49,169 bases of DNA from a virus (IMGVR_UViG_2740892489_000001); one strand, 5' to 3'; positions 1 through 24,486 are shown, counted from the stretch's first letter. Numbers and translations: made by a program. Notes: generated by a model from the sequence alone, not told the origin.

Positions 1-1237
1 CTACGATAACCGCGCATTCAACATGGCTATCTGTTCGTCGTTCATGTCATCAATCCACATACCGTAAATTTCATACACCATCTGCGCAGTTTCATGCCCC
101 ATTTGGCTGGCTATAAATGCCGGGTTCGCTCCTGCCGTCAACAGCCAGCAGGCAAAAGTATGCCGCGTATGGTACGGATTACGGCGGCGAATACCAGCAC
201 GTTTTACTGCTGCATTCCACCTTGCCCCCAAACTGCTTACCGAGTAATAAGGTTTTTGTTTTCCGTTACACACCCTGGGCATGAAAACAAAATGCAGTTT
301 TTGCTTTTCGGTTCTGCCGTACTCCCGATGATAAAAGGTGATTTCGCTTTTGCGATGATGCCCGGTCAGTTTGTATTGCTCCTTCAGTGCTTCAAGAGCA
401 GGCTGCAGTAGTGTTACTGTTCGGATCCCGGCATTTGTTTTTGGGGGACCGAACATATCAAGTATCGTCAGGTTTCTTCTGACATTCACTATTCCCTTTT
501 CGAGATCCACATCCTCCCACGCCAGAGCTGCCAGTTCCCCGTGACGAAGTCCTGAGTAAACGGCAAATTTCCACAAGTTCTGGCTCTGTCCTTTTTCACT
601 TTCCATTAATGCATTGAATTCTGTTTTAGATAACGGATCAGGCTTTATTCTGTTTCGCTGTAATTTTTTTACTCCTTCAAATGGTTTAGTTGATATAAAT
701 CCCGACTGATACGCAAAACGCAACAGCGAACAGAGCAGGGCGATATAGTTATCAACTGTGCGCACGGTTCTTCCTTTTTTTGTTGGATCTTGGATTATCC
801 AGGTAAAGCGTTTCTCCATGCAGCAGTTCATTCCGGTAGTTTAAGATATCGCTATAACGAATATGTGATATCGGGGTACTTTCACAAATTATTATTCTGA
901 GTGTTTTTAATTGTGATTTCGTTTTCTTCATTGTGTTTGTTGTTAACTCTGTCTCTTTAATTTTTGTCCAGATATCACAAAGCTCTCCGAACGTTTTTAT
1001 GACTCTCGTTGTCACCATTTTTGCCCCAGTGCTGGACTGGGGAAAACGTCTTAAATACTCAAATTCACCGGAGTTTATTTCATGAACTATCAGCGATCTT
1101 AAATTTCCGGCCTTTTTAATATTACTGTTTGTAATCTCCCAGCCTTTTAATGTTTCCCGACATCGTTTTCCTCGAAACATGAACCAGATGCGAATGTATC
1201 TACCTCTAATCTCGACACCTGTTGGTAATTTAGACAT
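1..1237 (-). CDS. intR: Tyrosine integrase (IntR-like); frame broken at T7 run 775-781
   Basis: ORFs 752..1237 (N-terminal part) and 1..831 (C-terminal catalytic part) overlap in different frames and together give about 411 aa. Confidence 0.85.
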
Positions 1238-1238
1238 A

Positions 1239-1454
1239 TCATGAGTCTTTGATAAACTGATTTATCTTTGGATAGTTGTACCAGATAATCCCTCGTTTGC
1301 TGTCTGGCTTACCTAAAGGAGATACTCGTTTGAAGTGGAAGCCCTCCACCCAACAGTTCTGGCGGTATGCTTCAATTTGTCTGGCCCCCAGACCAGTGCG
1401 AAGCATCAGGCCGTATTCAACCATCCACTCTTCATTAAAGATTACTTGTGCCAT
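1239..1454 (-). CDS. Excisionase-like small protein
   Basis: 79-aa ORF directly upstream of int on the same strand; internal Met ([10 protein letters not shown]) taken as start. Confidence 0.55.
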
Positions 1455-1532
1455 CGCATCACCTCTGGCAGGCGCCAATGTTAGACTGAAATTGACGCCC
1501 GATGTTGATTATTAATAATCAGCTATGAAGTT

Positions 1533-1754
1533 TTAATTTGAATACAATGCAATTCTCGAGGACTGAAGTTTCTCGCAATTAAAATTTATCAGTTTTACTT
1601 TCTGCTCTCTGGAAACGCCTGCTTCTTTTTTACCTGAGAGCATTTTTTCGCATTCTGATTTCGTTAGTTTAGATTTTGAATATCTTGTCCAGTTAGTAGG
1701 AGTGCCACCTTCCTTTTCAATAGTGGCGGTAATTTTATACATGAACACCTCCAT
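1533..1754 (-). CDS. YdaC-like small prophage protein
   Basis: Internal Met MEVFMYKITATIEKEGG of the 93-aa ORF; position between xis and ralR as in Rac. Confidence 0.45.
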   Translation of the reverse strand: MEVFMYKITATIEKEGGTPTNWTRYSKSKLTKSECEKMLSGKKEAGVSREQKVKLINFNCEKLQSSRIALYSN

Positions 1755-1929
1755 TATTATTTCCAGTGGTTCGTTTATTCCATCTTTCGAGTGCTTCTTT
1801 TTCACTTCCACCATAACCGGTTCGGGATTCGCATCCGTTACACTTCGCTCGGTAATATCCTGAAATGGCTTTCACCGTTACTGATGGACAACCACAAAAT
1901 GGACATGGTTTAACATTGTCATATCTCAT
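1735..1929 (-). CDS. ralR: Restriction alleviation protein Lar/RalR-like
   Basis: MRYDNVKPCPFCGC...KCNGCESRTGYG Cys-rich motif, 64 aa, immediately upstream of recT. Confidence 0.65.
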   Translation of the reverse strand: MRYDNVKPCPFCGCPSVTVKAISGYYRAKCNGCESRTGYGGSEKEALERWNKRTTGNNNGGVHV

Positions 1930-1985
1930 AATTTTTCTCATAAAAAATATTTCAAGTTGGCGGTGCATTACACCGCCAGGCTGAA

Positions 1986-2795
1986 TTATTCCTCTGAATT
2001 ATCGATTACACTGTATTCCCCGGTTAATACAGAGGAATCTGCAGGATCGATTGTCAGTGGTTCCTTTTCATCCATTGATACTGCACGCTGGATCTCAATT
2101 GATACGGGCAGATATTTGAACAGGCGACGAATAGCCGTTTTCTTTGCCATTTCTTCCCAGTGAGTTACCCACGGCCCGTTATTACCAGCTTTACTCAGGC
2201 TGCGCACCAGCTCAATCTGTTTGCGCGTCATAACTTCAAACTGAGTACCTCCGTCTTTCAGTCTTGCGACAGCATAGACGTGGGTAACCGGGGCATCTTC
2301 GTTTTCTCCCGGGCGGTGTATTAACTTTTCATCAAGGCCAAATTCGAAGCTAAACTCGTCACCTTCACGGACAACACGGGCTGACAGGCTGGCGATTTGA
2401 CCAGAACGGCGAGCCAGATCAATCATGCCGCGATAGCCAATGATTAGCTGAACGTTCTTTTTACCGCTCTTTTCGTTTTTATTACCAAAAGGCAGTAAAT
2501 ATGCATGACCGAGGGCGCTACCTGGCTCAAGTCCGAGCTGTGAACACTGTACGATCGCACTGACAAAACTCATAGTGTCACAGTTTCCTAACGCCGGAAC
2601 TTTACGAATTTCTGTGGTGGCGATACGGATCATACGTTCAGCCGTCATATGGCGTGGAAGAGCTGCTGCCAGTTGCTCTTTCATTGATGGCTGGTTAATA
2701 AAACTAATCACGTCGCTATTTTTAACTGCTGCTGGTGCACGGTTTCCCTGAGTTTTTTGCAGATCGGCTTTTGCGATTGGTGGTTGCTTAGTCAT
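1986..2795 (-). CDS. recT: RecT single-strand annealing protein
   Basis: 269 aa from [14 protein letters not shown]; paired with recE. Confidence 0.9.
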
Positions 2796-5389
2796 TTGCA
2801 TATTCCTTAGCCCAGCGGGGCAGTGATAATGTCTTAATAGCTGGCCATTCATCGGTATTCAGGCAGTCAGACAGGGTTCGCAGATTGCGGTGATATTCCT
2901 GTTGACCTGCCAGTTTTGCTTCTTCGCCCATCATGAAAATTTCAACCGGATAACGTCCGCATTCAATAGTTGTGCTGGCAACCAGAAAAACGAAAGTTGG
3001 CTGCACTCCAAACTGTGCTTCATAACCGTCACTGTAGAATGCATCCTGAACGTGATAGCGGTAGTCGTAATAAGCGGTTTTGAATCGTTGAATATCCGCC
3101 GTAGTTTTCACGTCCATGATCCAGTGAAATTCAGGGATAATTTTGTCCGGACGGCACCGACACAAAATTCCTGTTTCAGGATCTTCCCAGTAAATTGATG
3201 ATTCAGCGTGTCCGGCGCTTTCAACAAGCCATTGCCCCAGCGGCAAAGCCATAACGCTTTGATACATGAGTTCAATTTTCCGGCCTTCTTCCGCAGTGAT
3301 AACCGTTTTTCCTGTGCTTGCGCATTCCATCAGAAACGCTTTCTCTTCTTCTTTTCCGGCGTTTGTACGGCGGTTAAATTCAGGTGCTACGATAAAGCGG
3401 TTACTGAATTCTTCCGGTTCAAGTACCCGGCAGTGGAAAGCAGTTCCTAAATCGAGCGTTTTTGTCTTTGTGGTGTCCACGGGGGCATTTTTACGCCACA
3501 AATATAGTGCCGGAGTATCAGCAATGTCATCGAGCTGAGACTTACTGATACCGGGACCCGCGTGGTAATTCTCATTCGAAATTCCGTAATAAATACCTGG
3601 CTCTATGTCTTCTACGATTACGGGATCTGCGACTTCGCCAGTTTCATCACTGCAATCGCGATGCGGATCGCTGCCAGCATTCTCATTGTGCGGATGTTCA
3701 GCGCCTTCCATTTCCTCCGGATCATTTTCCTTAGCTTCAACCTGACTCTCTTCATCGAATGTTTCCTGGTATGTTGCGTCGCCCATCACCGCACCACAGT
3801 CAGGGCAGTTATCCCCGCCAGTCTGGCCGCAGGCATTGCAGGCTATTTCCGGTTCCTGTTGCACTACTGGCTCAGGTTGATTCATATCTGGGCTGGTTTT
3901 TTCCGTTTCTGGCTGGTTCTGGTACACACAATCGCGAGTCTGGATCCCCTTTACCCATTTCGGATCGTTCGGGTCGCTAATTCCGTCAACAAATTCACCA
4001 CGTGATGCAGCAAGCAATTTATCGGCATCGACAGGATTTTTTGATGGAATGTTTTTCCGGGCTTCATGGAGTTCTGCCCGCAGTTCCTGATATTTCGCAT
4101 CAACAGAATTTACCTGTGACTGAGCATCCAGCGGCTGCGTGTCCTGATGATGTTCAGTTGCGTCCGGTTCCATTGTTTCAGCCTCTCCCTGTTCAACTGC
4201 CGTTGTTCCAGATGGTTGCGGTTTTTCTTCATCATCCTGTTTTCCTTCTTCTGTTACTCGCTGCGGCATCGGGGCAGAGGAGCGACCGCAGGCAATATCC
4301 ACGATTTCCGGATCAGGGTTGGCATGATCGGTTTCAGTCAGTACTTTGTTCAGATATTCAGTGACGTGCGCGGGGATGACCTCGATCCCAATTGGTGCTT
4401 CTTTTACGGACGCAACCACGATGGCGCGGGAATAATCCAGCCCGCCAGGCATGGTGATGAATTTGTCGCGGAAAACAGAAAAGGGCGGTTTATTTTCAGC
4501 GATAATTTCCTCAATGCGTTTAGCGTGTGCCGGATGAAGGTTATAGATGTCCAGATCCATTGAACGGGCCAGTACGCCAGTGGCTACGTCGCGCGCCAGT
4601 GACGTCAGATCGTGTACGAAACCTTCGCCGCGATCGGTGAGGTTTCCGCCGCCAGCATTAGCACCGGAAGCCGTGCGAGTGATGTGTGAAACACGATTAC
4701 CCTTCATCCACTCTTTTGTCAGCAGTCCTCGATCGGTGTAGTCAGCGTTCAGGTATGCTTCGAAAAAAGCAGTTATCAGTCCCAGGTTTGAATTACCAGG
4801 ATTAGGGAAAACTTTGTCAGTGTCACGAACCAGTTTGTGGAGTTCGCGAATTTCCAGCGGGTCGAGCAGGCTGGTTTTGTGGGAAACAGCCAGGGCAGTA
4901 ACAGCCGGTAGTTCTTCAGCCCGAGCAATGTGTAATGCCTGGAGTCCGTCGCGTGAAACGTGCGTTACCGGTTTTTCGCTGCCGTGTTGAGCAAGCCAAC
5001 GAATGGGCAGTTCCTGGCCAGAAATTGGGAGTAGCATATTCTCCTCAATCTCAGTCATGTCTTCGCCGTTGACGTTGGTATTGCCTTGATAGTGAGCGTT
5101 GTCTGGTGCTGCTCCCGGTTTTAGTTCCCATGTCATGGAGTCTTTGCTGAGTTGATAGCGTTCACTCCAGGTAAAATCGATCTCACCTTCAGCGGGCAGG
5201 TCATTAACGACAGGAAAATTCGTGGCAACAGCTTTAAAATAGCTGCTCAGTTTTTTACCTGACTTAACGATCAGGTAGTCCAGAGTGGCACAGGTCGATT
5301 CAAAATCGTTGCTTGCCCACAGGACGACGTCAGGTTCACCGGATGATTTTTTTCGCTTTCCGTAACAGGAAGAGTGGTTTTGTGCTCAT
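2788..5389 (-). CDS. recE: RecE exonuclease VIII; N-terminus displaced by frameshift at T7 run 5347-5353
   Basis: 782-aa ORF from [11 protein letters not shown] ending [13 protein letters not shown]; upstream 17-codon [14 protein letters not shown] fragment joins in frame if the run is one base shorter. Confidence 0.9.
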
Positions 5390-5490
5390 TGTTTTTTAAC
5401 CTCAACTCAGATTAAAATTCGTTTTGTTCAGTGAATGATCTTGCCGGATACACACTGTTCATAGCCTGCGCCATACGCAGGCTATTTCTT

Positions 5491-5767
5491 TCAGATTTCA
5501 CCTTTTAATTTCATTGCAATTAGAGTTGCCAGAAATTCGGCTTTTTTTTCTGCGGGCAGATTCTTTCCGATATGCACCAGGCACATTTTTTTTGACACCT
5601 TCATCAAGTGTTTTTACGTTGCCTGATGGACCATCGATATCAACCACAGTGAATGGGGTTTCTTTATTTTCTGTTTTAATTACGTAGCCAATGCGCTTTC
5701 CTTCCAGATTCACCTCGTGAACAATGTCATCGGTAGTTACAACAGTGGCTTCATAATTGGTAATCAT
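5491..5767 (-). CDS. racC: RacC-like protein; frame broken at T8 run 5586-5593
   Basis: MITNYEATVVTTDDIVHEVNLEGKRIGYVIK... N-terminus; expected C-terminus (MCLVHIGKNLPAEKK...) is in the adjacent frame. Confidence 0.6.
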
Positions 5768-5841
5768 GTTTTTCTCCTTAATTAAGGTTGAGCGAATACC
5801 TGCCATTTCTGGCATAAATTCAGTTTCGAATAGTCAATTAA

Positions 5842-5994
5842 TTAAAGTTCATGTGCCATCTGGTCTTTTTCGGCACAAGCTTCACTGCAATATTTTCTCG
5901 GTTCGTCTTTTGATAAAATCCCGTGCATGAAGTGAAGCATTCTTTCAATAGCTTTGCTTTCTTCAACGTCTTTTTTTGCAAAGGTGGTAAGCAC
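5842..5994 (-). CDS. YdaE-like small Cys-containing protein (GTG start assumed)
   Basis: Open frame ...ESKAIERMLHFMHGILSKDEPRKYCSEACAEKDQMAHEL between racC and kilR; start and frame uncertain. Confidence 0.3.
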   Translation of the reverse strand: MLTTFAKKDVEESKAIERMLHFMHGILSKDEPRKYCSEACAEKDQMAHEL

Positions 5995-6012
5995 ATTTTA
6001 TTTTCTTAGTCA

Positions 6013-6233
6013 TCACCATGACTCCGCCTTTACAGGTAAACCATCACGACCGAGGAAGACTTTAATCATGCGGTCAGTAATGCATGTTTTTGTGGTCAGG
6101 TTACGAATATATAGTTTTCGCTTTTTAATATTGTTTGCCGAGCAATATATGTCCGGCCTTCATGAAGAACATAATCGCCAGGAGTCACACACTGACGTGG
6201 TATTTCATCAGTTCCGAAGTGATGTGCAATCAT
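6013..6233 (-). CDS. kilR: KilR-like killing protein; frame appears broken near 6140
   Basis: [31 protein letters not shown] in one frame, ...[14 protein letters not shown] in the adjacent frame. Confidence 0.5.
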
Positions 6234-6675
6234 AATTATCTCCATTTTTACAAATGAACTTTGTTGATGCGGTGCCTGGTGCCTCCAGGTGACTGCAACC
6301 AGTTAACAATTACAGTCGGCTTTCCCACCCAAACCAATAAGGACTAACATGACTTTTAACTGTGCCACGTGCGCTTAGCCGCATTCACCGCATCACAAAA
6401 TTCACTTTAAAAAGGGCGGACATCAGCCGAACTTCAAGAAAAAAAACTGATGCCGCCAGGACTACACACAGCAATGTCGTTATTTACAACCGGAGGCGCA
6501 CTCCCACCATTTAAATTTAACAGACAAGACCGACTCTTTATGGATATCGGAAATGCGCCTTCGTGTTGTGCCCGGTTTTATTTCACCACCTCCGGGCTTC
6601 GGTGGTCTCGGCTATACCCCTACAGCGAGAGCTTGTGTTAACATTTCAATACCCTTACAGTTGAGAGTTATTGAT

Positions 6676-7164
6676 ATGTTGGATGTATTTACTCCATTGT
6701 TGAAACTTTTTGCTAACGAGCCACTCGAAAGACTTATGTATACGATTATCATTTTTGGTCTCACTCTCTGGCTGATACCGAAAGAGTTTACTGTCGCATT
6801 CAATGCTTATACTGAAATACCTTGGCTCTTTCAGATTATCGTTTTTGCCTTTTCTTTCGTGGTCGCCATTTCCTTCTCAAGATTGCGAGCACATATTCAA
6901 AAGCATTATTCATTACTACCAGAGCAACGAGTATTGCTTCGTTTATCTGAGAAAGAAATCGCTGTATTTAAAGATTTCCTTAAAACAGGAAATCTTATTA
7001 TCACTTCTCCTTGCCGTAACCCGGTTATGAAAAAATTAGAACGGAAGGGCATCATTCAACATCAGAGTGATAGCGCAAACTGTTCTTATTATCTCGTCAC
7101 CGAAAAATACTCCCATTTTATGAAGTTATTCTGGAACAGCAGGAGTAGACGTTTTAATCGTTAG
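6676..7164 (+). CDS. sieB: Superinfection exclusion protein B
   Basis: MLDVFTPLLKLFANEPLERLMYTIIIFGLTLWLIP..., hydrophobic N-terminus; ATG at 6676 inside the longer track ORF. Confidence 0.8.
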   Translation: MLDVFTPLLKLFANEPLERLMYTIIIFGLTLWLIPKEFTVAFNAYTEIPWLFQIIVFAFSFVVAISFSRLRAHIQKHYSLLPEQRVLLRLSEKEIAVFKDFLKTGNLIITSPCRNPVMKKLERKGIIQHQSDSANCSYYLVTEKYSHFMKLFWNSRSRRFNR

Positions 7165-7316
7165 CTTACTGTGTGCTTCTCCAACCATCGGCGCGCACCA
7201 GTTTCGGTTTTAAATGTTTTGCTTTTGGTATACGTCATGGCAGTGAACGTTCCATCCTGGTTGGGGAACACGCCGCACACCAGGGATTCGTTGTTGCCGA
7301 GGTCGATTTTTTGCAT
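7161..7316 (-). CDS. YdaF-like small protein (51 aa)
   Basis: Hand translation MQKIDLGNNESLVCGVFPNQDGTF...; below track length cut-off. Confidence 0.45.
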   Translation of the reverse strand: MQKIDLGNNESLVCGVFPNQDGTFTAMTYTKSKTFKTETGARRWLEKHTVS

Positions 7317-7326
7317 TTTGCGAATC

Positions 7327-7461
7327 TCACATCTTGTTGCTACGTATAGCGACTTCTGCCTGCCAGAGATCCCAGTCGTTGCTGCGTAAAGCCTGCACAG
7401 CCTGGTTGTAAGTGATACCGCAACAATCCATCAAATACTGAACTACTTCGTAATGCACCAT
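7327..7461 (-). CDS. YdaG-like small protein (44 aa)
   Basis: Hand translation MVHYEVVQYLMDCCGITYNQAVQALRSNDWDLWQAEVAIRSNKM. Confidence 0.45.
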   Translation of the reverse strand: MVHYEVVQYLMDCCGITYNQAVQALRSNDWDLWQAEVAIRSNKM

Positions 7462-7631
7462 CTTATCTATCCCCTTAACGCCGGGTGGCGGAACTAACTG
7501 CTGCACTGCAAAATTTGAATCCCGCCGTCATGTTCATACGCCTCGGGCTGGCTACTTAACCCCTGACCACTGCCTGGTAACTCGAAGTATTGCCCGGCGT
7601 TCTGTGGGGCGGGGTGGGTTGGTAGGTATAT

Positions 7632-7674
7632 AATGTACTTTGTGTTCATCATTGTAAAGTACTTTAAGTACATT
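7632..7674. promoter_or_regulatory. Left operator-like cluster of GTACT-core palindromic motifs
   Basis: AATGTACT, AAAGTACT and AAGTACATT within 43 bp downstream of racR; same motif recurs at 8195-8226. Confidence 0.35.
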
Positions 7675-7748
7675 TTATGTATAAAAAAATGAGACGGGAT
7701 AAAGTGAAGCACAAACCCGGAGGGGGACGCTACCGGATTTATGCTGGT

Positions 7749-8171
7749 TTAAGAGGCTTTTTTGTTTTTTTCTTTCGTGCTAACTCTTCGTAAATTGCAT
7801 TGTACTTCTGTTTTTTTCTCCTCAAGAGTTTTTAAAAGTTCATCTGTCTCACTGTCAGGGAGCTCGTCCAGAAGGTCAATGATGATTTTTTGTCTTGGAT
7901 TTAACTCCTGATAGAAACGTATCTGTCCACTTTCTTCTGTATCCTCTCCCAAAAGATAGGTTGGTGTTGTTCCAATGAGTGTTGCTAATTCCCTTAATTT
8001 CTCTCGGCGAGGAATTGTTTCACCATTAAACCATTTGCTAACCGCTTTTGGTGTTAATTTCATTCGACGGGCAATTTCTGCCTGCCTTCCATGTTGTTCA
8101 TAACCAGCGTTTTCACAGGCTAGCGCAAGCCTACTGGCGAACTCTTTACGCGCTTTATCTTCATGAACCAT
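7749..8171 (-). CDS. racR: Prophage repressor, XRE-type HTH (RacR-like)
   Basis: HTH-like segment AEIARRMKLTPKAVSKWFNGETIP; divergent from the Cro-like gene; C-terminus passes two A7 runs so the exact end is uncertain. Confidence 0.7.
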   Translation of the reverse strand: MVHEDKARKEFASRLALACENAGYEQHGRQAEIARRMKLTPKAVSKWFNGETIPRREKLRELATLIGTTPTYLLGEDTEESGQIRFYQELNPRQKIIIDLLDELPDSETDELLKTLEEKKTEVQCNLRRVSTKEKNKKAS

Positions 8172-8250
8172 AAGTTCAATGATATTCGCTCTTGAATGTA
8201 CTGTCAGTTCTGTTATAGCATGTACTCAAAGTTCACATTGTGAGGATGAT
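8172..8250. promoter_or_regulatory. Divergent promoter/operator region between repressor and Cro-like gene
   Basis: AATGTACT (8195-8202) and CATGTACT (8219-8226); possible -35 TTGAAT / -10 TATAGC for the rightward gene. Confidence 0.4.
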
Positions 8251-8505
8251 ATGAACCAGAAAACACTTGAAGATGTAATCAAAACTGTTCGCGTTTCTGT
8301 TGTGGCCGACGTTTGTGGTGTCAGCCAAAGAGCAATCTACAAATGGATGGATAACGGAAAATTGCCTCGCACAGAATATACCGGCGAAACAAATTACGCT
8401 GAAAAAATCGCTCATGCATCAAACGGATTATTTTCTGCCGATGCAATTTTAACTATTGGCAGAAATAAAACTACTACGAAAAAGCTGATGGGAGTTGATT
8501 CATGA
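8251..8505 (+). CDS. Cro/YdaS-like HTH protein
   Basis: MNQKTLEDVIKTVRVSVVADVCGVSQRAIYKWM HTH; GAGGA Shine-Dalgarno before ATG 8251. Confidence 0.6.
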   Translation: MNQKTLEDVIKTVRVSVVADVCGVSQRAIYKWMDNGKLPRTEYTGETNYAEKIAHASNGLFSADAILTIGRNKTTTKKLMGVDS

Positions 8506-8924
8506 AAATCAAGCATGAGCACATCGAATCAGTGTTGTTAGCCCTGGCAGCCGAAAAAGGGCAGGCGTGGGTCGCTAACGCAATTACTGAAGAATATCTG
8601 CACCAGGGGGGCGGCGAATTGCCCCTGGTACCAGGCAAGGACTGGAACAATCAGCAGAATATCTATCATCGTTGGTTGAAAGGTGAAACGAATGCGCAAA
8701 GGGAAAAAATTCAGAAACTGATCCCTGCGGTTCTGGCAATTCTTCCTCGCGAGCTGCGTCACCGACTCTGCATCTTCGATACCTTGGAACGCCGTGCATT
8801 ACTGGCGGCACAGGATGCACTGAGTACGGCAATTGATGCGCATGATGATGCAGTCCAGGCCGTTTACCGTAAAGCACATTTCAGCGGCGGCGGTTCTCCT
8901 AGCGATTCTGTCGTAGTGCATTGA
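8502..8924 (+). CDS. YdaT-like (CII-position) regulatory protein
   Basis: 140-aa ORF overlapping the upstream stop (ATGA); position as ydaT in Rac. Confidence 0.5.
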   Translation: MKIKHEHIESVLLALAAEKGQAWVANAITEEYLHQGGGELPLVPGKDWNNQQNIYHRWLKGETNAQREKIQKLIPAVLAILPRELRHRLCIFDTLERRALLAAQDALSTAIDAHDDAVQAVYRKAHFSGGGSPSDSVVVH

Positions 8925-9001
8925 TTGAAATTAATCGTACCGAACTGTTTTGTTCGGTATCAGTTAAATGTAACGCTGCGAGCGTTACAAGGTGAAAACA
9001 A

Positions 9002-9790
9002 ATGGCTTCAAACTGGATAAAGCTCGAAGTTATTACGCCGGATAAGCCGGAAATATTCAGGCTTGCTGAGATTCTGAATATTGATCCAGATGCCGCATTA
9101 GGGAAAGTCATTCGCTTCTGGGCATGGGCGGATCAACAAATGATAGACGGTAACGCAGAGTGTAACGCTCGAGGCGTTACAAAAAGTGCAATAGACCGTA
9201 TCACTTTTATGGCTGGTTTTGCTGATGCGTTAATTCAGGTTGGATGGCTGGTCGAAAGTGATGGAGTGCTTTCACTACCAAACTTTGAGCGTCATAACGG
9301 AAAAAGCTCGAAAAAACGGGCGGTTACAAACGAGAGAGTTACAAAAATACGCGAACTGAAGCGAAAAGGTAACGCTGCCAGCGTTACACAAACGGATCAA
9401 AAAGCGTTACCAGAGGAAGAGGAAGAGGAAGATATAAATACTGATCTCCCCCTAAATCCCCCTCGGCAAAAACGAGCGTCTAAACAATTCGAGCCGGAGG
9501 CCATTGCTCTGCCCGACTGGTTGCCAGAAACACTCTGGAATGAGTGGGTCCAGTTCAGGCAGGCATTGCGAAAACCGATTCGAACGGAGCAGGGCGCTAA
9601 CGGGGCGATACGGGAACTGGAAAAATTCCGCCAGCAGGGTTTTACCCCTGAGCAGGTGATTCGACACAGCATCGCCAATGAATACCAGGGCTTGTTCGCG
9701 CCGAAAAGTGTTCGGCCTGAGACGTTGCTCCGACAGGTTAACACTGTCTCGTTTCCGGACAGTGCGATCCCGCCAGGCTTCAGGGGGTAA
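9002..9790 (+). CDS. Replication initiation protein, O-like
   Basis: 262 aa with acidic linker EEEEEED; iteron-like repeats inside the coding region; followed by DnaC-like gene. Confidence 0.7.
   Translation: MASNWIKLEVITPDKPEIFRLAEILNIDPDAALGKVIRFWAWADQQMIDGNAECNARGVTKSAIDRITFMAGFADALIQVGWLVESDGVLSLPNFERHNGKSSKKRAVTNERVTKIRELKRKGNAASVTQTDQKALPEEEEEEDINTDLPLNPPRQKRASKQFEPEAIALPDWLPETLWNEWVQFRQALRKPIRTEQGANGAIRELEKFRQQGFTPEQVIRHSIANEYQGLFAPKSVRPETLLRQVNTVSFPDSAIPPGFRG
9149..9410. repeat. Iteron-like GTAACGC / GCGTTAC repeats (candidate ori)
   Basis: GTAACGC at 9150 and 9162, GCGTTAC at 9174 and 9404, palindrome GTAACGCTGCCAGCGTTAC at 9369-9387; similar palindrome at 8970-8988. Confidence 0.6.
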
Positions 9791-9796
9791 CTGACC

Positions 9797-10543
9797 ATGA
9801 AAAATATTGCGACAGGCGGCGTTCTGGAACGTATCCGCAGACTGGCCCCGCCACATGTAACCGCGCCATTCAGGACGGTGGCGGAGTGGCGCGAGTGGCA
9901 ACTTGCAGAAGGCCAGAAACGTTGCGAGGAGATCAATCGCCAGAATCGTCAGTTGCGGGTGGAAAAAATTCTGAATCGCTCCGGCATCCAGCCGTTGCAC
10001 CGCAAATGCTCGTTTTCGAATTACCAGGTGCAGAACGACGGCCAGCGATACGCGTTGAGCCAGGCGAAATCCATCGCCGATGAACTGATGGTCGGGTGTA
10101 CAAATTTTGCGTTTAGCGGAAAACCTGGTACCGGAAAAAACCATCTGGCGGCGGCTATCGGGAATCGCCTGCTGAAAAACGGTCAGACAGTGATTGTGGT
10201 TACCGTGGCTGATGTTATGAGTGCTCTACACGCCAGCTATGACGACGGGCAATCAGGCGAAAAATTTTTGCGGGAACTGTGCGAAGTGGATCTGCTGGTT
10301 CTTGATGAAATTGGCATTCAGCGCGAGACAAAAAACGAGCAGGTGGTACTGCACCAGATTGTTGATCGCCGGACAGCGTCGATCCGCAGCGTGGGGATGC
10401 TGACAAACCTGAACTATGAGGCCATGAAAACATTGCTCGGCGAGAGGATTATGGATCGGATGACCATGAACGGCGGGCGATGGGTGAATTTTAACTGGGA
10501 GAGCTGGCGCCCGAATGTTGGTCAGCCAGGAATTGAGAAGTAA
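9797..10543 (+). CDS. DnaC-like helicase loader ATPase
   Basis: Walker A GKPGTGKNHLAAAIG and Walker B LLVLDEIG. Confidence 0.85.
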   Translation: MKNIATGGVLERIRRLAPPHVTAPFRTVAEWREWQLAEGQKRCEEINRQNRQLRVEKILNRSGIQPLHRKCSFSNYQVQNDGQRYALSQAKSIADELMVGCTNFAFSGKPGTGKNHLAAAIGNRLLKNGQTVIVVTVADVMSALHASYDDGQSGEKFLRELCEVDLLVLDEIGIQRETKNEQVVLHQIVDRRTASIRSVGMLTNLNYEAMKTLLGERIMDRMTMNGGRWVNFNWESWRPNVGQPGIEK

Positions 10544-11731: not shown

Positions 11732-11891
11732 GCCAAATTAATAATCGGAACTTGGTGAAGTGAAAGAGAAAGCATAACCCAAATCTGAATAATTAAATTC
11801 AGCACTGTGAATAAAATAGAGTCCTTAACCGGAGGAATTCCTGCACTCTCAAATCATCAGGAGGCCGCCCGAAAAGGCGGTGGAGATAATA

Positions 11892-12410
11892 ATGGAAATA
11901 ACTAAAGAACGATTATTGGAAATAGCAAATCTTAGTGATGGGGCATTAAGTGATGGGAGAATTATTTCTCCTGATGCTTATGAATCAGTTACAAGTATAG
12001 AAATAATAACGATGGCTAGGATGCTTCTTGCGCGATTCAAAAAAGAATATAAAAAACAGGTAGATAGCAATGCTAATATATATGATATTTTGGACGGTTG
12101 GGGAGCCTGGGCTGTAGCTGAAAATAGTTCTATTGATTGGCAGGAAATAGCTGATAAATATAAAAATGTTGTTCCTCATGGTAAAAAATCACGTCGTCAG
12201 TGCAGCAATGATGAAGGGGGTATAATTGATACCTGCATGTTGAGGCTTAAACAATATAAGATAGATGACTATGAGTTAATTATCGCTCATTTTGTTATGG
12301 GAGTTTCATTGCGTTGTTTAGCTAAGATAAACGAATGTTCAGATGGTAAAATAAGGAAAAAAATGCAAATGGCAATGGGATTTATTGCAGGTTGTATCTA
12401 TTACCGTTGA
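11892..12410 (+). CDS. Q-antiterminator-like protein (QuuD/Q-933W type) with N-terminal extension; AT-rich
   Basis: DGWGAWA...KSRRQC...IIDTCMLRLK...FVMGVSLRCL...CSDGKIRKKMQ resembles the Q family signature as recalled; GGAG 6 nt before ATG 11892. Confidence 0.55.
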   Translation: MEITKERLLEIANLSDGALSDGRIISPDAYESVTSIEIITMARMLLARFKKEYKKQVDSNANIYDILDGWGAWAVAENSSIDWQEIADKYKNVVPHGKKSRRQCSNDEGGIIDTCMLRLKQYKIDDYELIIAHFVMGVSLRCLAKINECSDGKIRKKMQMAMGFIAGCIYYR

Positions 12411-12416
12411 TTTTTT

Positions 12417-12437
12417 AAGGCGAGTTTCTCTCGCCTT
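12417..12437. other. Perfect 8-bp stem-loop between convergent genes (possible terminator)
   Basis: AAGGCGAG-TTTCT-CTCGCCTT, T6 on the 5' side only; not a canonical hairpin-plus-U-tract in either direction. Confidence 0.4.
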
Positions 12438-12440
12438 AAA

Positions 12441-13924
12441 TTAACTACAGTAACTATTGATTAAGTGAGAACTGAGCCAAGAGGTAATTGCATTCGTAGC
12501 ATGTTCATCAAGCATTGAGAATCCTAATATGATCATTATAAATGAAATCAGCAAAGTCAGAATCACAACGAATGTGGCTATAATCTGATAAGCTTTGTAT
12601 GCTTCTCTTAATGGTGTGACTGCAAGATTCTCATAGTCAGTATCATCAAGAAAACCATATAGTTTATCTCTCCAGACTAGCCTAGTATTATCAAGTATCT
12701 TAAAGTAATTTTTATTTATGAAGAGAGTTGTAACCTGAGATATAAAAATATATATAGATAACGCGAAGAACATATATGGGAATATGTTATTGGTTATATT
12801 AATCTTTGATGCGTCTAGCGCATATTTTATTGCAAATAGACTTATAACCAGAGCCAGATCTTTCCAAAGAGCGGATGTGATGTCTTTAGACTGACTTATT
12901 ATTTTTTGCGTGTCTTCAGCTAAGGTTTTCCTTAGATCGGACAGAGATTTAATAGTCTCTCTGCTGCTAGCGCGAATGTGGGCCTTATATAGTAATTTTG
13001 CTGACTCAAAGGCCATAGGGAGTTTTTTTTGGTAAACCCTCACAGAAGGATACATACTCTGGCCATTCTCGTGCTAACTCACTTGTGAAGAAAGTATGTT
13101 TGAGTTCAATCTCATTGCCCTCAATAAAGATCCAGTTTATTACAGTTTGTAAAACTGAATAGTCGGAAAGCAGAATGTCTGGATCTCCATAAATTAATTT
13201 TTTTGGTGGCTTTCCAGTTAAACAAATTGATTTCTTTTCATCTGCTAATAATTCATTAACGAGAGTGCGACAAAGCATATTGCAGGAAACTTGTAACCAT
13301 TTTTTGAAAAAGTTGTCCTCTGCCTCAGGCATTTTATAAAGTACCCAAGGAGCTATATCAGATGCAGGCATGAACTCACTAGAATAGAATTTAACGTAGC
13401 TCTGTAAATTGATTGAAGTTCGTACGGTTTCATTAGATTCAATTTTTTTCTGGAGCATGGTTCCATGGCTCAACAGAATATCCTAAAGTTTCAAATCCAT
13501 GTTTCAAACCGAGAATATTCACTTTATTGGTTATTGATACTAAATCATCATTGTGTAGAAAAACATTCCACCCTTCGAGCGTAAAAATATACCTGTTATT
13601 TTCGAATGCAATGCATTTTAGCGTAATGTTAAGTTTATCACCTTCACTGCATGACGATGGTTTTACTTCATCATTACAGTCATCTTTAACAGTAATTTCA
13701 ATCCAATTTGGTACGTTTTCGTAAACGTACTGCCAAAGAATGAGTGCATCTTTGTCCATTTTGGCAGAAATTAGAACGCGCGCAGAATCATTTTTTATTG
13801 ATTCTGATGCCAAAAATTCAGGGTCTTTCCTTGACGCCTGTATAGACTCATCGATTTTTTGAAGTATCGATGTCATCAGTAATAATCCTCGCAGTAGTAA
13901 CAATAATTTGTTTTCGCCCATCAT
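12441..13924 (-). CDS. Hypothetical protein with multi-pass membrane C-terminus; three track ORFs joined across homopolymer indels
   Basis: ORFs 13439..13924, 13006..13473 and 12441..13055 become one frame if T7 13443-13449 and T8 13023-13030 are each one base shorter; hydrophobic helices in last ~200 aa. Confidence 0.5.
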
Positions 13925-14907
13925 CTAAGTTTCTTATTTCTGGACGGTCATCTTCATTATAACTAATTACTACACTTTCTGCAGTTTCAATTTTTCGTCT
14001 TGGTGGTTTATGAATGCCATCTGCTTTTATAGTAAAGGATTCGCCTTCAATACCAGCATTTTTTGTTTGAGTTTTGAATGTGTTGAGAATTGGTGATTTT
14101 TCATCTAACGGCCCAAAAATGCTGGTCAATAACGGAGAAGCATCTTCAGGATTATATTCGAAATCAGCTCTGCTTAAAACTTCATATATTTTATTTACGC
14201 CGCTTTTTTGAATTGACTCTGGCAATAATTCTTTATGCCTTTTGAAGGTTATTTTCAGCGCATCAATAAGCTTATTGCAAAGTTCAATTTCAGAGTTGAC
14301 TCTTTTAACATTTAAGAAGCCTTTAAAATATCCTGAAATATTGGTTCTTTTACTCCTGTCTTTTACAATAACTTTCCCGCCTTTCCCACTTGGATCAAGT
14401 TGAATTAACGCTATTTTTTTGCATTGCCTCAGCTTTTTTTACGAAAGTTTCATGAAATCTTTCTAAAGTAGGCATTTGTTCTTCAGATAACTTTTCGTCA
14501 AGAACATAACGAACCACATCTTCATTATCGTATTTTATAATTGCATAGAATTTTTCCTTATCTGAAACCAATTCAAATAAGAAAAAGCATCCCATACTCG
14601 TGTTACCGCTAGAATGGTGTGACTGAAAATCACTGGCCAGTAGCTTCGATTGTTCTGTAAAACAATTAGCTTCAGCATCTGCTTTATCTCTAATGATACG
14701 CAGGATTCTTTCGGTATTTGAATTCTCCAGAAAAGTGAAAAGATTTCCTTTCAGTGAAGATTTGATACGTTCAAGAAAAAAATCCACATGCTGAACTGGT
14801 TTTATTTCTTTGAGAAGTGTCGGTGCTTCAAGATTCTTACCTACAACGTGAAAGATCATTTTATTAATGACTAAATTTTGTACGTCTTGTTCAGAAAGGA
14901 AACTCAT
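13848..14907 (-). CDS. NdpA/YejK-like (nucleoid-associated protein family) candidate; two track ORFs joined
   Basis: ORFs 14395..14907 and 13848..14225 fuse if T7 14414-14420 or 14434-14440 is one base shorter; motifs MIFHVV, GCFFLFELV...YAIIKYD, IQLDPSGKGGKVIVKDRSK recall the YejK family; GGAG before start. Confidence 0.45.
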
Positions 14908-14948
14908 CCTGACTCCATAATCAAGCAGATTAGAACTATGACTAGTCT

Positions 14949-14977
14949 AGTATATGCATCTTTTGGTGCGTACGCAA
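14949..14977 (-). promoter_or_regulatory. Candidate sigma70 promoter for the minus-strand island genes
   Basis: On minus strand TTGCGT-17 nt-TATACT, about 50 nt upstream of start 14907. Confidence 0.35.
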
Positions 14978-14999
14978 AAGTTCTTAAACTCAAAATGTT

Positions 15000-15236
15000 A
15001 TCGCGGATAGATCTTTGTAGAGTCAGTGATTGGCGCAGGTAGGTGGTAACAGCAGACAAATAGCTGCGGATACTTGAGGCTATCTGCCTCGGGCATGAAC
15101 ATCAAAGGCAGATAGAGAAAAGCCCCAGTTAACATTACGCATCCGGCAAGACGCTTAACATTAATCTGAGGCCAATTTCATGCTTTGCACATGTAGGTTA
15201 GCCTCTTACGTGCCGAAAGGCAAGGAGAAGCAGGCT
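15000..15236. promoter_or_regulatory. hok leader / putative sok antisense region
   Basis: Structured GC-rich leader typical of hok mRNAs upstream of the hok ATG. Confidence 0.4.
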
Positions 15237-15392
15237 ATGAAGCAGCAAAAGGCGATGTTAGTCGCCCTGATCGTCATCTGTTTAACCGTTATAGTGACGG
15301 TACTGGTAACGAGGAAAGACCTCTGCGAGGTACGAATCCGAACCGACCAGACGGAGGTCGCTGTCTTCACAGCTTACGAACTTGGGGAGTAA
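15237..15392 (+). CDS. hok: Hok/Gef-family type I toxin
   Basis: MKQQKAMLVALIVICLTVIVTVLVTRKDLCEVRIRTDQTEVAVFTAYELGE; in-frame upstream extension from 15180 (mok-like). Confidence 0.85.
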   Translation: MKQQKAMLVALIVICLTVIVTVLVTRKDLCEVRIRTDQTEVAVFTAYELGE

Positions 15393-16455: not shown

Positions 16456-16745
16456 TGGTGGATTTACGTAAAGCGGCGCGGGGGCAGATGTGCACCGTCA
16501 GAATTCCTGGCTACTGCAATCACGATCCGGAAACGTCTGTGCTGGCGCATTACCGACTGGCGGGAACGTGCGGAACAGCGACAAAACCACACAATATGCA
16601 GGCGGCGATTGCCTGTAGCTCATGCCACGATCTAATCGACGGGCGGGTAAAAACCATCGATTACACCAAAGAAGAATTACGCCTGATGCATGCAGAAGGT
16701 GTTCTTCGCACACAAGAAATCTGGAGAAAGGAGGGATATTTATGA
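16455..16745 (+). CDS. YbcO-like Cys-rich protein (DUF1364 by recollection)
   Basis: CTVRIPGYCNHDPETSVLAHYRLAG...CSSCHD pattern, 96 aa. Confidence 0.5.
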   Translation: MVDLRKAARGQMCTVRIPGYCNHDPETSVLAHYRLAGTCGTATKPHNMQAAIACSSCHDLIDGRVKTIDYTKEELRLMHAEGVLRTQEIWRKEGYL

Positions 16746-16924
16746 TTTACCCAACGAATACAGGAAAAAGCGGAGAACACCTTCGTCTCACCACGCTGGA
16801 AAGTGTCTGGATTCAGGGAAAACTACGTATGTGGGGGCGCTGGTCGTATATTGGCGGCGGTAAGACGGGGAATATGTTCAACCAGTTGTTGGCCTCTAAA
16901 AAGCTGACAAAAAACGGCAATTAA
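16742..16924 (+). CDS. Hypothetical 60-aa protein
   Basis: GGAGGG Shine-Dalgarno before ATG 16742; overlaps upstream stop. Confidence 0.4.
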   Translation: MIYPTNTGKSGEHLRLTTLESVWIQGKLRMWGRWSYIGGGKTGNMFNQLLASKKLTKNGN

Positions 16925-16940
16925 CGAGGCGCTCCGGAGG

Positions 16941-17286
16941 ATGAAAAAAAGCAGGTCTGAACAAGTCTGAACTTGAGGCTTTTTTGCGGGATATGATTAA
17001 CGGTAAGCAAAAGAGCTGGCTGGCGCATTGTACTGATGCAGAGGCGTTATGTATTGATCGGGTCATAAGTGAGGTGCTGGCAGAGCATCCAGGATTGATT
17101 AGCGTCCTTCGGCAACGGTATGAGGGGCGGGGGATGACCAAACGCAAAATGGCTGAATTGCTAAATGATGCACACCCAGAGTGGTGTTTTAGCACATGCG
17201 AAAAGCGAATTGCTAATTGGTTGGCCGTTGCTGAGTATGCGCTATACATTCCCATGCGAGAATCATTCGCTCAAAAAACGGCTTGA
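16941..17286 (+). CDS. Hypothetical protein at the Q position upstream of the late region; frame broken at A7 run 16944-16950
   Basis: ATG 16941 with GGAGG Shine-Dalgarno gives 9 codons then stop; one fewer A yields a continuous 115-aa frame MKKAGLNKSELEAFLRDMINGK... Confidence 0.4.
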
Positions 17287-17639: not shown

Positions 17640-17715
<76 letters not shown>

Positions 17716-17718
17716 TAT

Positions 17719-17793
<75 letters not shown>

Positions 17794-19885: not shown

Positions 19886-21344
19886 ATGAATACATCTCAT
19901 GTAAGAGTTGTTACTCATATGTGTGGGTTCCTGGTTTGGCTCTATAGTCTTTCAATGTTGCCACCAATGGTTGTAGCATTGTTTTATAAAGAAAAAAGCC
20001 TGTTCGTTTTCTTTATAACTTTCGTTATATTTTTTTTGCATTGGTGGCGGAGCGTGGTATACAACTAAGAAATCTGGCATTCAATTACGTACCCGTGATG
20101 GGTTTATTATAATTGTAATGTTTTGGATTTTGTTTTCTGTTATTAGTGCATTCCCTTTATGGATTGACTCAGAACTTAATTTAACGTTCATTGATGCTCT
20201 GTTTGAAGGGGTTTCTGGAATAACAACAACAGGAGCAACTGTAATTGATGATGTTAGTTCATTACCTCGGGCATATTTGTACTATCGGTCACAGTTAAAT
20301 TTTATAGGTGGTTTAGGAGTTATTGTTCTGGCGGTTGCTGTATTGCCATTATTGGGTATTGGTGGTGCAAAGCTTTATCAGTCAGAAATGCCGGGGCCAT
20401 TTAAGGATGACAAACTCACTCCCCGCCTGGCCGATACGTCACGGACACTGTGGATAACTTATTCTTTATTAGGTATTGCTTGTATTGTCTGTTATAGACT
20501 TGCAGGAATGCCTTTGTTTGATGCTATTTGTCACGGGATTTCCACAGTTTCGCTTGGTGGTTTCTCAACTCATAGCGAGAGTATCGGATATTTTAATAAC
20601 TATTTGGTTGAGCTGGTGGCTGGTTCTTTTTCCCTGCTATCGGCTTTCAACTTCACTCTTTGGTATATTGTTATTAGCAGGAAAACGATAAAACCTTTAA
20701 TCAGAGATATTGAACTTCGTTTCTTTCTGTTAATAGCCTTAGGGGTGATCATTGTTACCTCTTTCCAGGTCTGGCATATAGGTATGTATGACTTGCATGG
20801 AAGTTTTATTCATTCGTTTTTTCTTGCCAGCTCCATGCTCACTGATAATGGTTTAGCTACGCAGGATTATGCAAACTGGCCCACGCACACGATAGTGTTT
20901 TTGCTGTTGTCAAGTTTCTTTGGGGGATGTATAGGTTCAACTTGTGGTGGAATTAAGTCACTTCGATTTCTTATACTTTTCAAACAAAGCAAACACGAGA
21001 TAAATCAGCTTTCTCATCCCAGAGCGTTGTTGAGTGTAAATGTAGGAGGGAAGATAGTTACAGATCGTGTAATGAGGTCTGTATGGAGTTTCTTTTTTCT
21101 TTATACTCTCTTCACGGTGTTTTTTATACTGGTGTTAAATGGTATGGGATATGATTTTCTTACATCATTTGCAACAGTGGCTGCATGTATTAATAATATG
21201 GGATTAGGTTTTGGGGCTACTGCATCGTCATTCGGAGTGCTTAATGACATTGCAAAATATTTAATGTGCATAGCTATGATTCTTGGTCGCCTTGAAATTT
21301 ATCCTGTTATTATATTGTTTTCAGGTTTTTTTTGGCGCTCCTAA
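19886..21344 (+). CDS. trkG: Trk potassium uptake membrane protein TrkG; frame broken at T8 run 20030-20037
   Basis: MNTSHVRVVTHMCGFLVWLYSL... N-terminus (ORF 19868..20068) and 408-aa ORF 20118..21344 join if the run is one base shorter. Confidence 0.85.
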
Positions 21345-21481
21345 TATATGGCTGATTTATAATTGTGAGTTTAATATTATATTGACTCACTCATTGATCC
21401 AATACCTAACTTTACCAGCAACACCTCCGCCCCCAGTAGCACTGGCTGCTGGGGTGCGTTTTATTCATAAAGCAAGGCTGT

Positions 21482-23386: not shown

Positions 23387-24486
23387 ATGAGCAGACCGGA
23401 CTGGGGGGCGTTGCAGCAGGAGTATATTGCTGAATACACCCGCTCCGGTATATCTCCGGTGGCATGGTGTGAAGCAAGGGGACTGAACTACGCAACAGCC
23501 CGTCGTTACATCAAAAAAAACTCCGAAAAATGCGCAGAAAGAAAATGCGCAAAACTGCGCAAAAAAAGTGCGCGAAAAAAAAACTGCGCAGACTGCGCAA
23601 AGGCAGAACGGAAAATCTCAGAAAAAAAAAGGCTGTATCCGATGCACTCCTGATTGAGGGGGACACGGAAGAAATTTCGTTCTGCCCCGATGAATTCGGT
23701 ATTTCTGACCAGCAGGCAAAATTCGCCATGTTGGTTGCTCAGGGGAAAAAGCCGACAGAGGCATACCGACTGGCTGGTTATGAGGGGCAAGGTGCGACAG
23801 CTAACAGCAACGCCAGCCGTATGCTTAGAAATGCCAGGGTTTATCGTGCTATCAGCTACTTCCGCAATCAGTACCAGAAACGCTATACCGCAGACCTGGA
23901 TTTACTGGTGAGCCAGTTGATGGCCATTGTCCAGGCCGACCCCAATCAGTTGGCACAATTTCGCCGTGTTAACTGCCGTTATTGCTGGGGCGAGAATCAT
24001 CTCTACCAGTGGCGTGATATTGCAGAATTCGATAAGGCTGCGGCACAGGCCTCCAGAGATGGTAAACCCGAGCCGGAATATGGAGGCCTCGGCTTTGTTG
24101 ATAACGCCATACCCAATCCGGATTGCCCGAAGTGCTGCGGTGAGGGAACGGGACAGCTTTATATGGCTGATACCACACTGCTTGATGGGGATGCGCGGCA
24201 ATTATATGCAGGGTCAAAGCTCGGAAAATACGGTGTTGAGATCCTGCTGGAGGATAAGGCTGCCGCCCGGCGTGAATTGTTGCGTTTGCTTTCTGCTGGC
24301 GGGGCATTATGTGCAGATAAACGGCTACAGGAACTGGAAATTGAACGGCGCAGAATAGAAAACCAGAAGCTGCGCAAAGAGATCGAAACGGTGGAGGATA
24401 ATGAACATCCCCAGCCTGTGGCGATCAATATTAATGTGGTTGATGCCAGATTAAGGAGTGATGAAGATGATCTCTCCGACGCTTAA
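23387..24486 (+). CDS. Terminase small subunit; frame ambiguous through A-run repeat region 23513-23630
   Basis: N-terminal ORF 23387..23653 and ORF 23530..24486 (AKFAMLVAQGKKPTEAYRLAGY...ANSNASRMLRNARV) separated only by A8/A7/A9 runs. Confidence 0.6.
23513..23630. repeat. Array of six TGCGC(A/G) hexamers interleaved with A6-A9 tracts
   Basis: TGCGCA at 23531, 23546, 23556, 23585, 23594 and TGCGCG at 23569; A runs at 23513, 23561, 23575, 23622. Confidence 0.5.

Follow-up and report, generated by a model that had tools for sequence, protein, structure and literature searches.

A prophage-borne gene pair encoding a YejK-fold nucleoid-associated protein and an acidic membrane protein, probably a PANGU-like abortive infection operon of Escherichia coli

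Two overlapping genes on the minus strand of a 49,169-nucleotide stretch of viral DNA (IMGVR_UViG_2740892489_000001; hereafter the window, with positions counted from its first letter) probably constitute a PANGU-like, type II-like abortive infection defence operon, which a lambdoid, Rac-like prophage of E. coli carries among its accessory genes. We have now defined the true gene models as two overlapping proteins of 352 and 477 amino acids (Table 1), the first being a nucleoid-associated protein (NAP) and the second its membrane partner. The initial annotation of this DNA had suspected a DNA-sensing exclusion system in the region, while knowing of no phage defence gene built on this fold. The latter statement is outdated, as PANGU types I and II and DS-1 are now described, PANGU being two-gene anti-phage operons built on YejK-like NAPs (bioRxiv 10.64898/2026.04.06.716658). 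The defence idea is right in spirit, and it is already published, with a different sensing logic. Considering the PANGU literature, DefensePredictor and the defence genes in the neighbourhood, a role in defence is the best reading of the locus, which would make it a prophage-borne example of newly recognised defences where a nucleoid clamp serves as a 'guard' of host-genome integrity.

Table 1. Coordinates of the NAP-partner operon in the window
Feature	Position	Strand	Description
Partner gene (pagB-like)	12441..13876	-	477 aa, identical to WP_001586996.1 after correction
Gene junction	13848..13890	-	partner ATG 13876-13874, NAP stop 13850-13848; sequence read directly
NAP gene (pagA-like)	13848..14907	-	352-aa NA37/YejK-fold protein; ORFs, Pfam, AF2, Foldseek
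Upstream intergenic region	14908..15179	-	divergent from hok/gef; operon promoter must lie here, by position only

The assignment of the first protein was examined by profile and by structure. The corrected NAP matched the Pfam family NA37 (PF04245) with an E-value of 1.2e-12, far below the 1e-5 that the initial annotation had named as supportive, and scored 48.3 bits where the gathering cut-off is 24.6, the match spanning residues 18-335 of the protein and positions 1-316 of the 325 in the profile. PF04245 was also annotated on every one of the NAP homologues recovered (79/79). The three motifs first quoted for this gene are all found in the joined translation, namely MIFHVV at residues 17-22, GCFFLFELV...YAIIKYD at 106-127 and IQLDPSGKGGKVIVKDRSK at 168-186. 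AF2 modelling was performed for the monomer on a homologue of 85% identity (P0001), and the model (pLDDT 85) consists of an N-terminal domain of a sheet plus helices followed by five helices and then four strands, which is the order of secondary structure in the published YejK topology (PMC11229321). Foldseek comparison of this model with the PDB, taking E <= 1e-3 as significant, returned a single significant match, E. coli YejK (9be2; E 2.5e-7, probability 1.0), with 13% identity in the structural alignment and a TM score of just 0.39-0.40, which is expected because a hinge joins the two domains. The C-terminal half of the NAP has a pI of 9.1, the invariant basic residues of the family include K125, K158, K164, R184 and R202, and a segment of low pLDDT (132-159) coincides with the location of the YejK dimerisation hairpin; these are indirect signs of a putative dimeric clamp whose electropositive pore would hold DNA irrespective of its sequence. 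At the sequence level, a PDB search with the NAP family profile gave no YejK match, and hhalign comparisons of the family were non-significant with YejK (E 0.12) and with the DS-1 NAP, which could not be aligned profile-to-sequence; the evidence for family membership is therefore the Pfam profile together with the fold. PADLOC v2 (2023) and NCBIfam gave nothing informative for the corrected NAP, and its only match in PHROGs was phrog_1974, of unknown function. Judged by the Pfam profile and by the predicted structure, the flagged product is an NA37/NdpA/YejK-fold protein, and the domain first proposed for it is thereby supported on both counts.

The NAP and its partner are arranged as a single unit. 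The last 29 nt of the NAP gene are at the same time the first 29 nt of the partner gene, the same 29-nt overlap being present in the RefSeq gene models, and a GAGGA Shine-Dalgarno sequence (13890-13886) is located 9 nt upstream of the partner ATG. This junction layout is as expected for translational coupling, by which the two genes would be linked. We surveyed 72 loci from 72 species, recovered through the partner protein, and observed an NA37 gene directly upstream of the partner gene and co-oriented with it in all of them (72/72), the two genes overlapping in 71 of the 72. These species belong to the Enterobacterales, Pseudomonas, Methylococcales, Rhizobiales, Sphingomonadales, Acetobacteraceae, Burkholderiales and Terriglobus, so that the pair spans the gamma-, alpha- and beta-proteobacteria and one acidobacterial genome (Terriglobus). 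The pairwise distances of NAP and partner were strongly correlated (r = 0.955), a value reached by none of 2000 permutations. When a conserved third gene was sought among the related loci none was found, the flanking ORFs varying in size and strand. Across three proteobacterial classes and Terriglobus, the NAP and its partner are one invariant unit. It was observed separately that the protein database places the NAP (352 aa) and the partner (477 aa), two unrelated proteins, in one 90%-identity cluster of 386 members whose representative is a 446-aa partial partner; this co-clustering may be spurious, arising from ORF calls that are fused or overlap, and owing to it the NAP homologue search contained no full-length match of 100% identity.

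The partner is annotated in RefSeq as a hypothetical protein of 477 aa (WP_001586996.1, in E. coli Ecol_316). Its N-terminal alpha/beta domain (about residues 1-280) is acidic, with a pI of 4.8 and a net charge of -15, and this character is kept across the partner family (median pI 4.9). Hydropathy located two transmembrane (TM) segments, residues 364-387 and 425-459, behind long helices, and two such segments were present in 82 of 93 family members. The AF2 model, obtained with an 85%-identical homologue as first row, has a pLDDT of 87.9 and likewise comprises an N-terminal alpha/beta domain and then very long helices. We recovered 101 homologues, and an exhaustive profile search gave proteins of uniform length that fall into 674 clusters at 50% identity. 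The three ORFs into which the partner is broken in the assembly matched nothing in Pfam, PADLOC v2 (2023) or NCBIfam and nothing informative in PHROGs, and neither the family profile nor the AF2 model found solved relatives in the PDB. The initial annotation had spoken of a membrane protein next door; the neighbour does have TM helices, and what had been seen corresponds to just the last third of the partner, whose 477 aa are divided among three ORFs in this assembly. The functional tie of the NAP to a membrane protein is supported by the TM architecture and the conserved pairing. As the structural matches of the partner model were generic long-helix ones, an activity as a pore or in damaging the membrane is speculative. 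It is possible, but on balance doubtful, that the partner represents an uncharacterised effector class for NAP-sensed immunity, distinct from Pag2B, in the form of a CorA/ClyA-like helical-hairpin module gated by the NAP; if true, gating would follow once the DNA clamp, freed from the nucleoid, has bound the acidic domain on the cytoplasmic side.

The pair is located inside the Rac-like prophage, between a Q-family antiterminator and the hok/gef locus together with nin-region genes, and the annotated Ecol_316 region bears out the prophage location originally given for the NAP gene. A cattle isolate carries the pair in the same prophage position. The two genes make up an island of 33-36% GC within flanks of 45-57% GC, and when 5426 complete E. 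coli genomes were searched by megablast, 29 contained the 2.9-kb cassette at an identity of at least 99.8%. A consensus scan for promoters and terminators gave nothing above the shuffled expectation. A search of the phage collection for near-identical DNA found no phage with the cassette, and only the neighbouring hok/mok region was matched. That neighbour is a Hok/Gef-family type I toxin locus at 15180-15392 (+), directly upstream of the NAP operon and divergent from it, of mok/hok/sok-like organisation and sharing 91-93% identity with the mokW/sokW region of Stx phages. The prophage has two antiterminator-Q-type genes, at 11880-12410 (+) and about 16742-17286 (+). The former (Phage_antitermQ, E 1.8e-33) has 35% GC, and since it is AT-rich like the cassette and abuts it, its composition suggests that this Q gene and the cassette arrived together by mosaic insertion into the nin region. 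Genes for tRNA-Thr(TGT) and tRNA-Gly(TCC) are found at 17640-17793 (+) of the window, with the Q-like gene on one side and the lysis genes on the other. Rac-like cargo (about 1-10000 and about 19900-21350) includes intR/xisR, ralR, recET, kilR, sieB, ydaS/T-type genes and trkG, and sitBCD follows the prophage at the far end of the window.

Outside E. coli prophages, the pair was found on 11 plasmids, including those of Pantoea, Rhizobium and Methylocystis, and in Thiobacimonas phage vB_ThpS-P1, a temperate isolate, where it adjoins the Cro/CI gene. The NA37 homologue of this phage (KT381864, gene 052) is annotated with 281 aa from position 752; an open frame matching positions 3-341 of the NAP profile starts near 437 (437-1597), and by this frame gene 052 appears to be annotated too short. 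Integrases are the most frequent Pfam family among the neighbours of the pair, with P4-type integrases and recombinases adjacent. In Siccibacter, Citrobacter, Dryocola, Klebsiella, Enterobacter and Pseudescherichia, a co-oriented ORF of 417-429 aa lies ~200 bp upstream of the pair (at about 5480-6770 in the Enterobacterales loci L002-L006 and L010). An aggregated scan of the batch with these loci gave Arm-DNA-bind_3, Phage_int_M and Phage_integrase matches for six neighbour ORFs, and the 417-429-aa ORFs are probably P4-type integrases, which would point to a small integrative island. We also compared the 348 ORFs within 4 kb of the pair with PADLOC, an uncontrolled tally that we take as supportive only. 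A good number matched known defence proteins strongly, these being PtuA (5.6e-184), a type I MTase (1.7e-179), LmuB (3.5e-106), GajB (2e-214), Dsr1 (3e-137), a CBASS cyclase (4e-115), type IIG RM, MkoA, PtuB, DRT and MADS. The pair is often found beside Septu, Gabija, RM, Lamassu or integrases.

How such a pair would work can be proposed from its characterised relatives. In type II PANGU the NAP (Pag2A) is encoded with Pag2B, a protein that begins with an acidic DNA-mimic domain and ends with a TM domain; the E. coli UPEC system, PANGU-Ecu, acts by abortive infection against T4 and Bas34 and needs both genes (bioRxiv 10.64898/2026.04.06.716658). The PANGU NAP sits on the host nucleoid and is freed when phage nucleases degrade host DNA; a GFP-tagged type II NAP leaves the nucleoid upon infection, and T4 denA (EndoII) mutants escape the system (bioRxiv 10.64898/2026.04.06.716658). 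The evidence for the need of both genes, for abortive infection and for host-DNA degradation covers PANGU-Ecu and PANGU-Ff (bioRxiv 10.64898/2026.04.06.716658). Every mechanistic step of the defence model given here is one that we infer by analogy with these systems; what the present analysis itself demonstrates is the fold, the pairing of the genes, the acidic-plus-TM architecture, the setting in mobile elements and defence islands, and the artefactual character of the frameshifts. Like YejK and Pag1A/Pag2A, the NAP would dimerise and form a clamp around host chromosomal DNA, and the partner would sit in the inner membrane with its acidic N-terminal domain, possibly a DNA mimic, on the cytoplasmic side. 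In the uninfected cell the nucleoid would hold the NAP apart from its partner. A lytic phage that degrades host DNA, as T4 does with EndoII/denA, would free the NAP, which could then dock on the acidic domain of the partner; docking would turn on the helical-hairpin TM module, the membrane would be damaged or depolarised, and the infected cell would no longer support phage growth.

A DNA binder paired with a membrane protein could also bring to mind superinfection exclusion, with the NAP sensing incoming phage DNA at the membrane as the initial annotation had suggested, or a TA-like module in which a NAP antitoxin and a membrane toxin stabilise the prophage, and it fits with both ideas that a hok/gef type I toxin locus adjoins the pair and that the prophage carries exclusion genes such as sieB. 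We consider this reading unlikely. In type II PANGU neither gene is toxic alone (bioRxiv 10.64898/2026.04.06.716658), and for that reason it is not a classical TA pair, which by analogy would speak against such a module here. The trigger of type II PANGU is the degradation of host DNA, as the denA escape mutants indicate, and not the entry of foreign DNA, and before infection its NAP is on the nucleoid and not at the membrane; if the present pair behaves like these relatives, sensing of DNA at the membrane does not hold.

Another reading is that of a mobile-element NAP which regulates or silences prophage or host genes, the membrane protein having an unrelated or accessory role. Regulatory roles of NA37 homologues on ICEs and plasmids are documented (PMC8565334, PMC6606824, PMC5576294), NdpA2, controlling the transfer of the PAPI-1 ICE, and Pnd, acting on plasmid pCAR1, would serve as models, and the NAP gene of the window is indeed located between prophage regulatory genes, the Q antiterminators. 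A stand-alone regulator, however, is not expected to show overlapping pairing with one membrane-protein family at 72 of 72 loci, nor co-divergence with it, and the pair stays constant while its context shifts from prophage to plasmid to integrative island. Many defence genes are found nearby, and DefensePredictor scores the NAP itself as defensive, WP_001586997.1 being listed in its Table S10 as a predicted defence gene with a log-odds of 8.42 (cut-off 4) (PMC13092281). We therefore hold a purely regulatory role to be quite improbable, and the PANGU-like defence operon is retained as the preferred reading.

Both genes are interrupted in the window as assembled, and the gene models given here depend on how these interruptions are understood. 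The NAP gene runs on the minus strand from an ATG at 14905-14907 to a stop codon at 13848-13850, precisely the limits of the initial annotation. Within these limits the assembly contains a 170-aa ORF (14395-14907) and then a 125-aa ORF (13848-14225), with the middle open in a second frame. The frameshift site is a run of seven T at 14414-14420 (A7 on the coding strand), which has six T in other E. coli; when one base is deleted there, the 352-aa product is identical to RefSeq WP_001586997.1, a 'nucleoid-associated protein'. The partner gene is similarly split, by an additional T at 13023 and at 13443, into ORFs 13439-13924, 13006-13473 and 12441-13055. In public data the exact corrected sequences occur on 815 contigs for the NAP, which is thus widespread in Escherichia, and on 587 for the partner. 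When positions 12300-15200 of the window were compared with Ecol_316, the sole differences were these three additional T in T-runs (13023, 13443, 14414), and over the 26.9 kb shared with that genome there were 25 one-base insertions, 3 deletions and 8 mismatches, the indels being nearly all in A/T runs. Since A/T homopolymer indels far outnumber mismatches across the 26.9 kb, the split of the NAP gene is almost certainly an assembly artefact, neither a pseudogene nor a programmed frameshift. Programmed frameshifting in the A-run of the NAP gene was considered and rejected, as the identical +1 homopolymer error type is found all over the window. The joining of two ORFs in the initial annotation did yield one continuous 352-aa gene, and the need for joining came from sequencing error and not from biology.

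That both genes are relics, decayed and non-functional in this strain through three real frameshift mutations, which would leave the locus dead there, is very improbable, as the interruptions on which this idea is founded are all +1 differences in T runs of at least 6 bases, errors of this type are met roughly every kb over 27 kb, essential phage genes included, and the remaining cassette is 100% identical to intact copies. The +1 errors are spread over positions 293-27212 of the window, for example at 775, 5347, 5586, 7763, 16909, 16944 and 23513-23622, and a DUF1133/Q-like gene is artificially split so that it appears as ORFs 16622-16924 and 16984-17286. Because these errors are systematic against a near-identical E. 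coli genome, many ORFs of the window are artificially split, and with ~1 homopolymer indel per kb, split ORFs elsewhere in it should not be taken as biology.

We compared the operon with the known members of this family of proteins and systems. The NAP resembles chromosomal YejK/NdpA (E. coli b2186; PDB 9be2) in Pfam family, two-domain fold and topology, and differs from it in having only ~13% identity, in being prophage-borne and in its obligate pairing with a membrane protein. In a housekeeping-orthologue test, the NAP gene was found outside the rplY-yejK-yejL locus, and the K-12 yejK locus differs. Given this location, and as directly comparing the sequence with that of YejK yields nothing above noise, the NAP is a divergent paralogue of a mobile-element clade and not the housekeeping NAP. 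With type II PANGU the pair shares the organisation as an E. coli bicistronic operon in which a YejK-like NA37 protein is encoded first, the link with defence islands and mobile elements, and a second protein in which an acidic N-terminal domain precedes a TM region at the C-terminus, a likeness of described architecture. Type II PANGU genes are adjacent with a gap under 40 bp, and here the two genes overlap by 29 nt; the type II effector feature is represented here by the acidic N-terminal domain (pI 4.8, net -15) and two C-terminal TM helices, the DNA mimicry of a 'DMK' domain being putative. The pair may instead belong to another cluster of the PANGU preprint, for example Cluster 3, which is composed of a NAP and a downstream conserved hypothetical protein (bioRxiv 10.64898/2026.04.06.716658). 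As compared with type I PANGU (Pag1A with the GRel toxSAS Pag1B), it would share, by analogy, a NAP as sensor and an effector that offers an acidic DMK domain for docking, but the partner has neither a toxSAS nor another enzymatic domain and is a membrane protein instead.

DefensePredictor (Science 2026) validated the E. coli YejK-domain pair DS-1 (D390), which consists of WP_000355468.1 (zinc ribbon plus NA37, 391 aa) and WP_000150292.1 (404 aa) (PMC13092281). As in DS-1, the NA37 gene of the present operon precedes that of an uncharacterised partner with an acidic N-terminal part. The DS-1 NAP, however, carries its NA37 domain at residues 42-382, after a CxxC...CxxC segment, whereas our NAP has no N-terminal zinc ribbon or Cys-rich N-terminus and matches NA37 from residue 18. 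The partners also differ, ours having two strong TM helices and that of DS-1 weakly hydrophobic segments only, and profile-profile comparison by hhalign found our partner unrelated to WP_000150292.1 (probability 0.8%, E 0.074, 26 columns). The membrane partner family is hence separate from that of DS-1, the sole validated system with sequences available for comparison, and possibly forms a separate effector clade within this recently described kind of defence. Being separate from the DS-1 family and invariant as a pair, it is a good candidate for learning how a released NAP activates a membrane effector, the step left open by the PANGU preprint (bioRxiv 10.64898/2026.04.06.716658).
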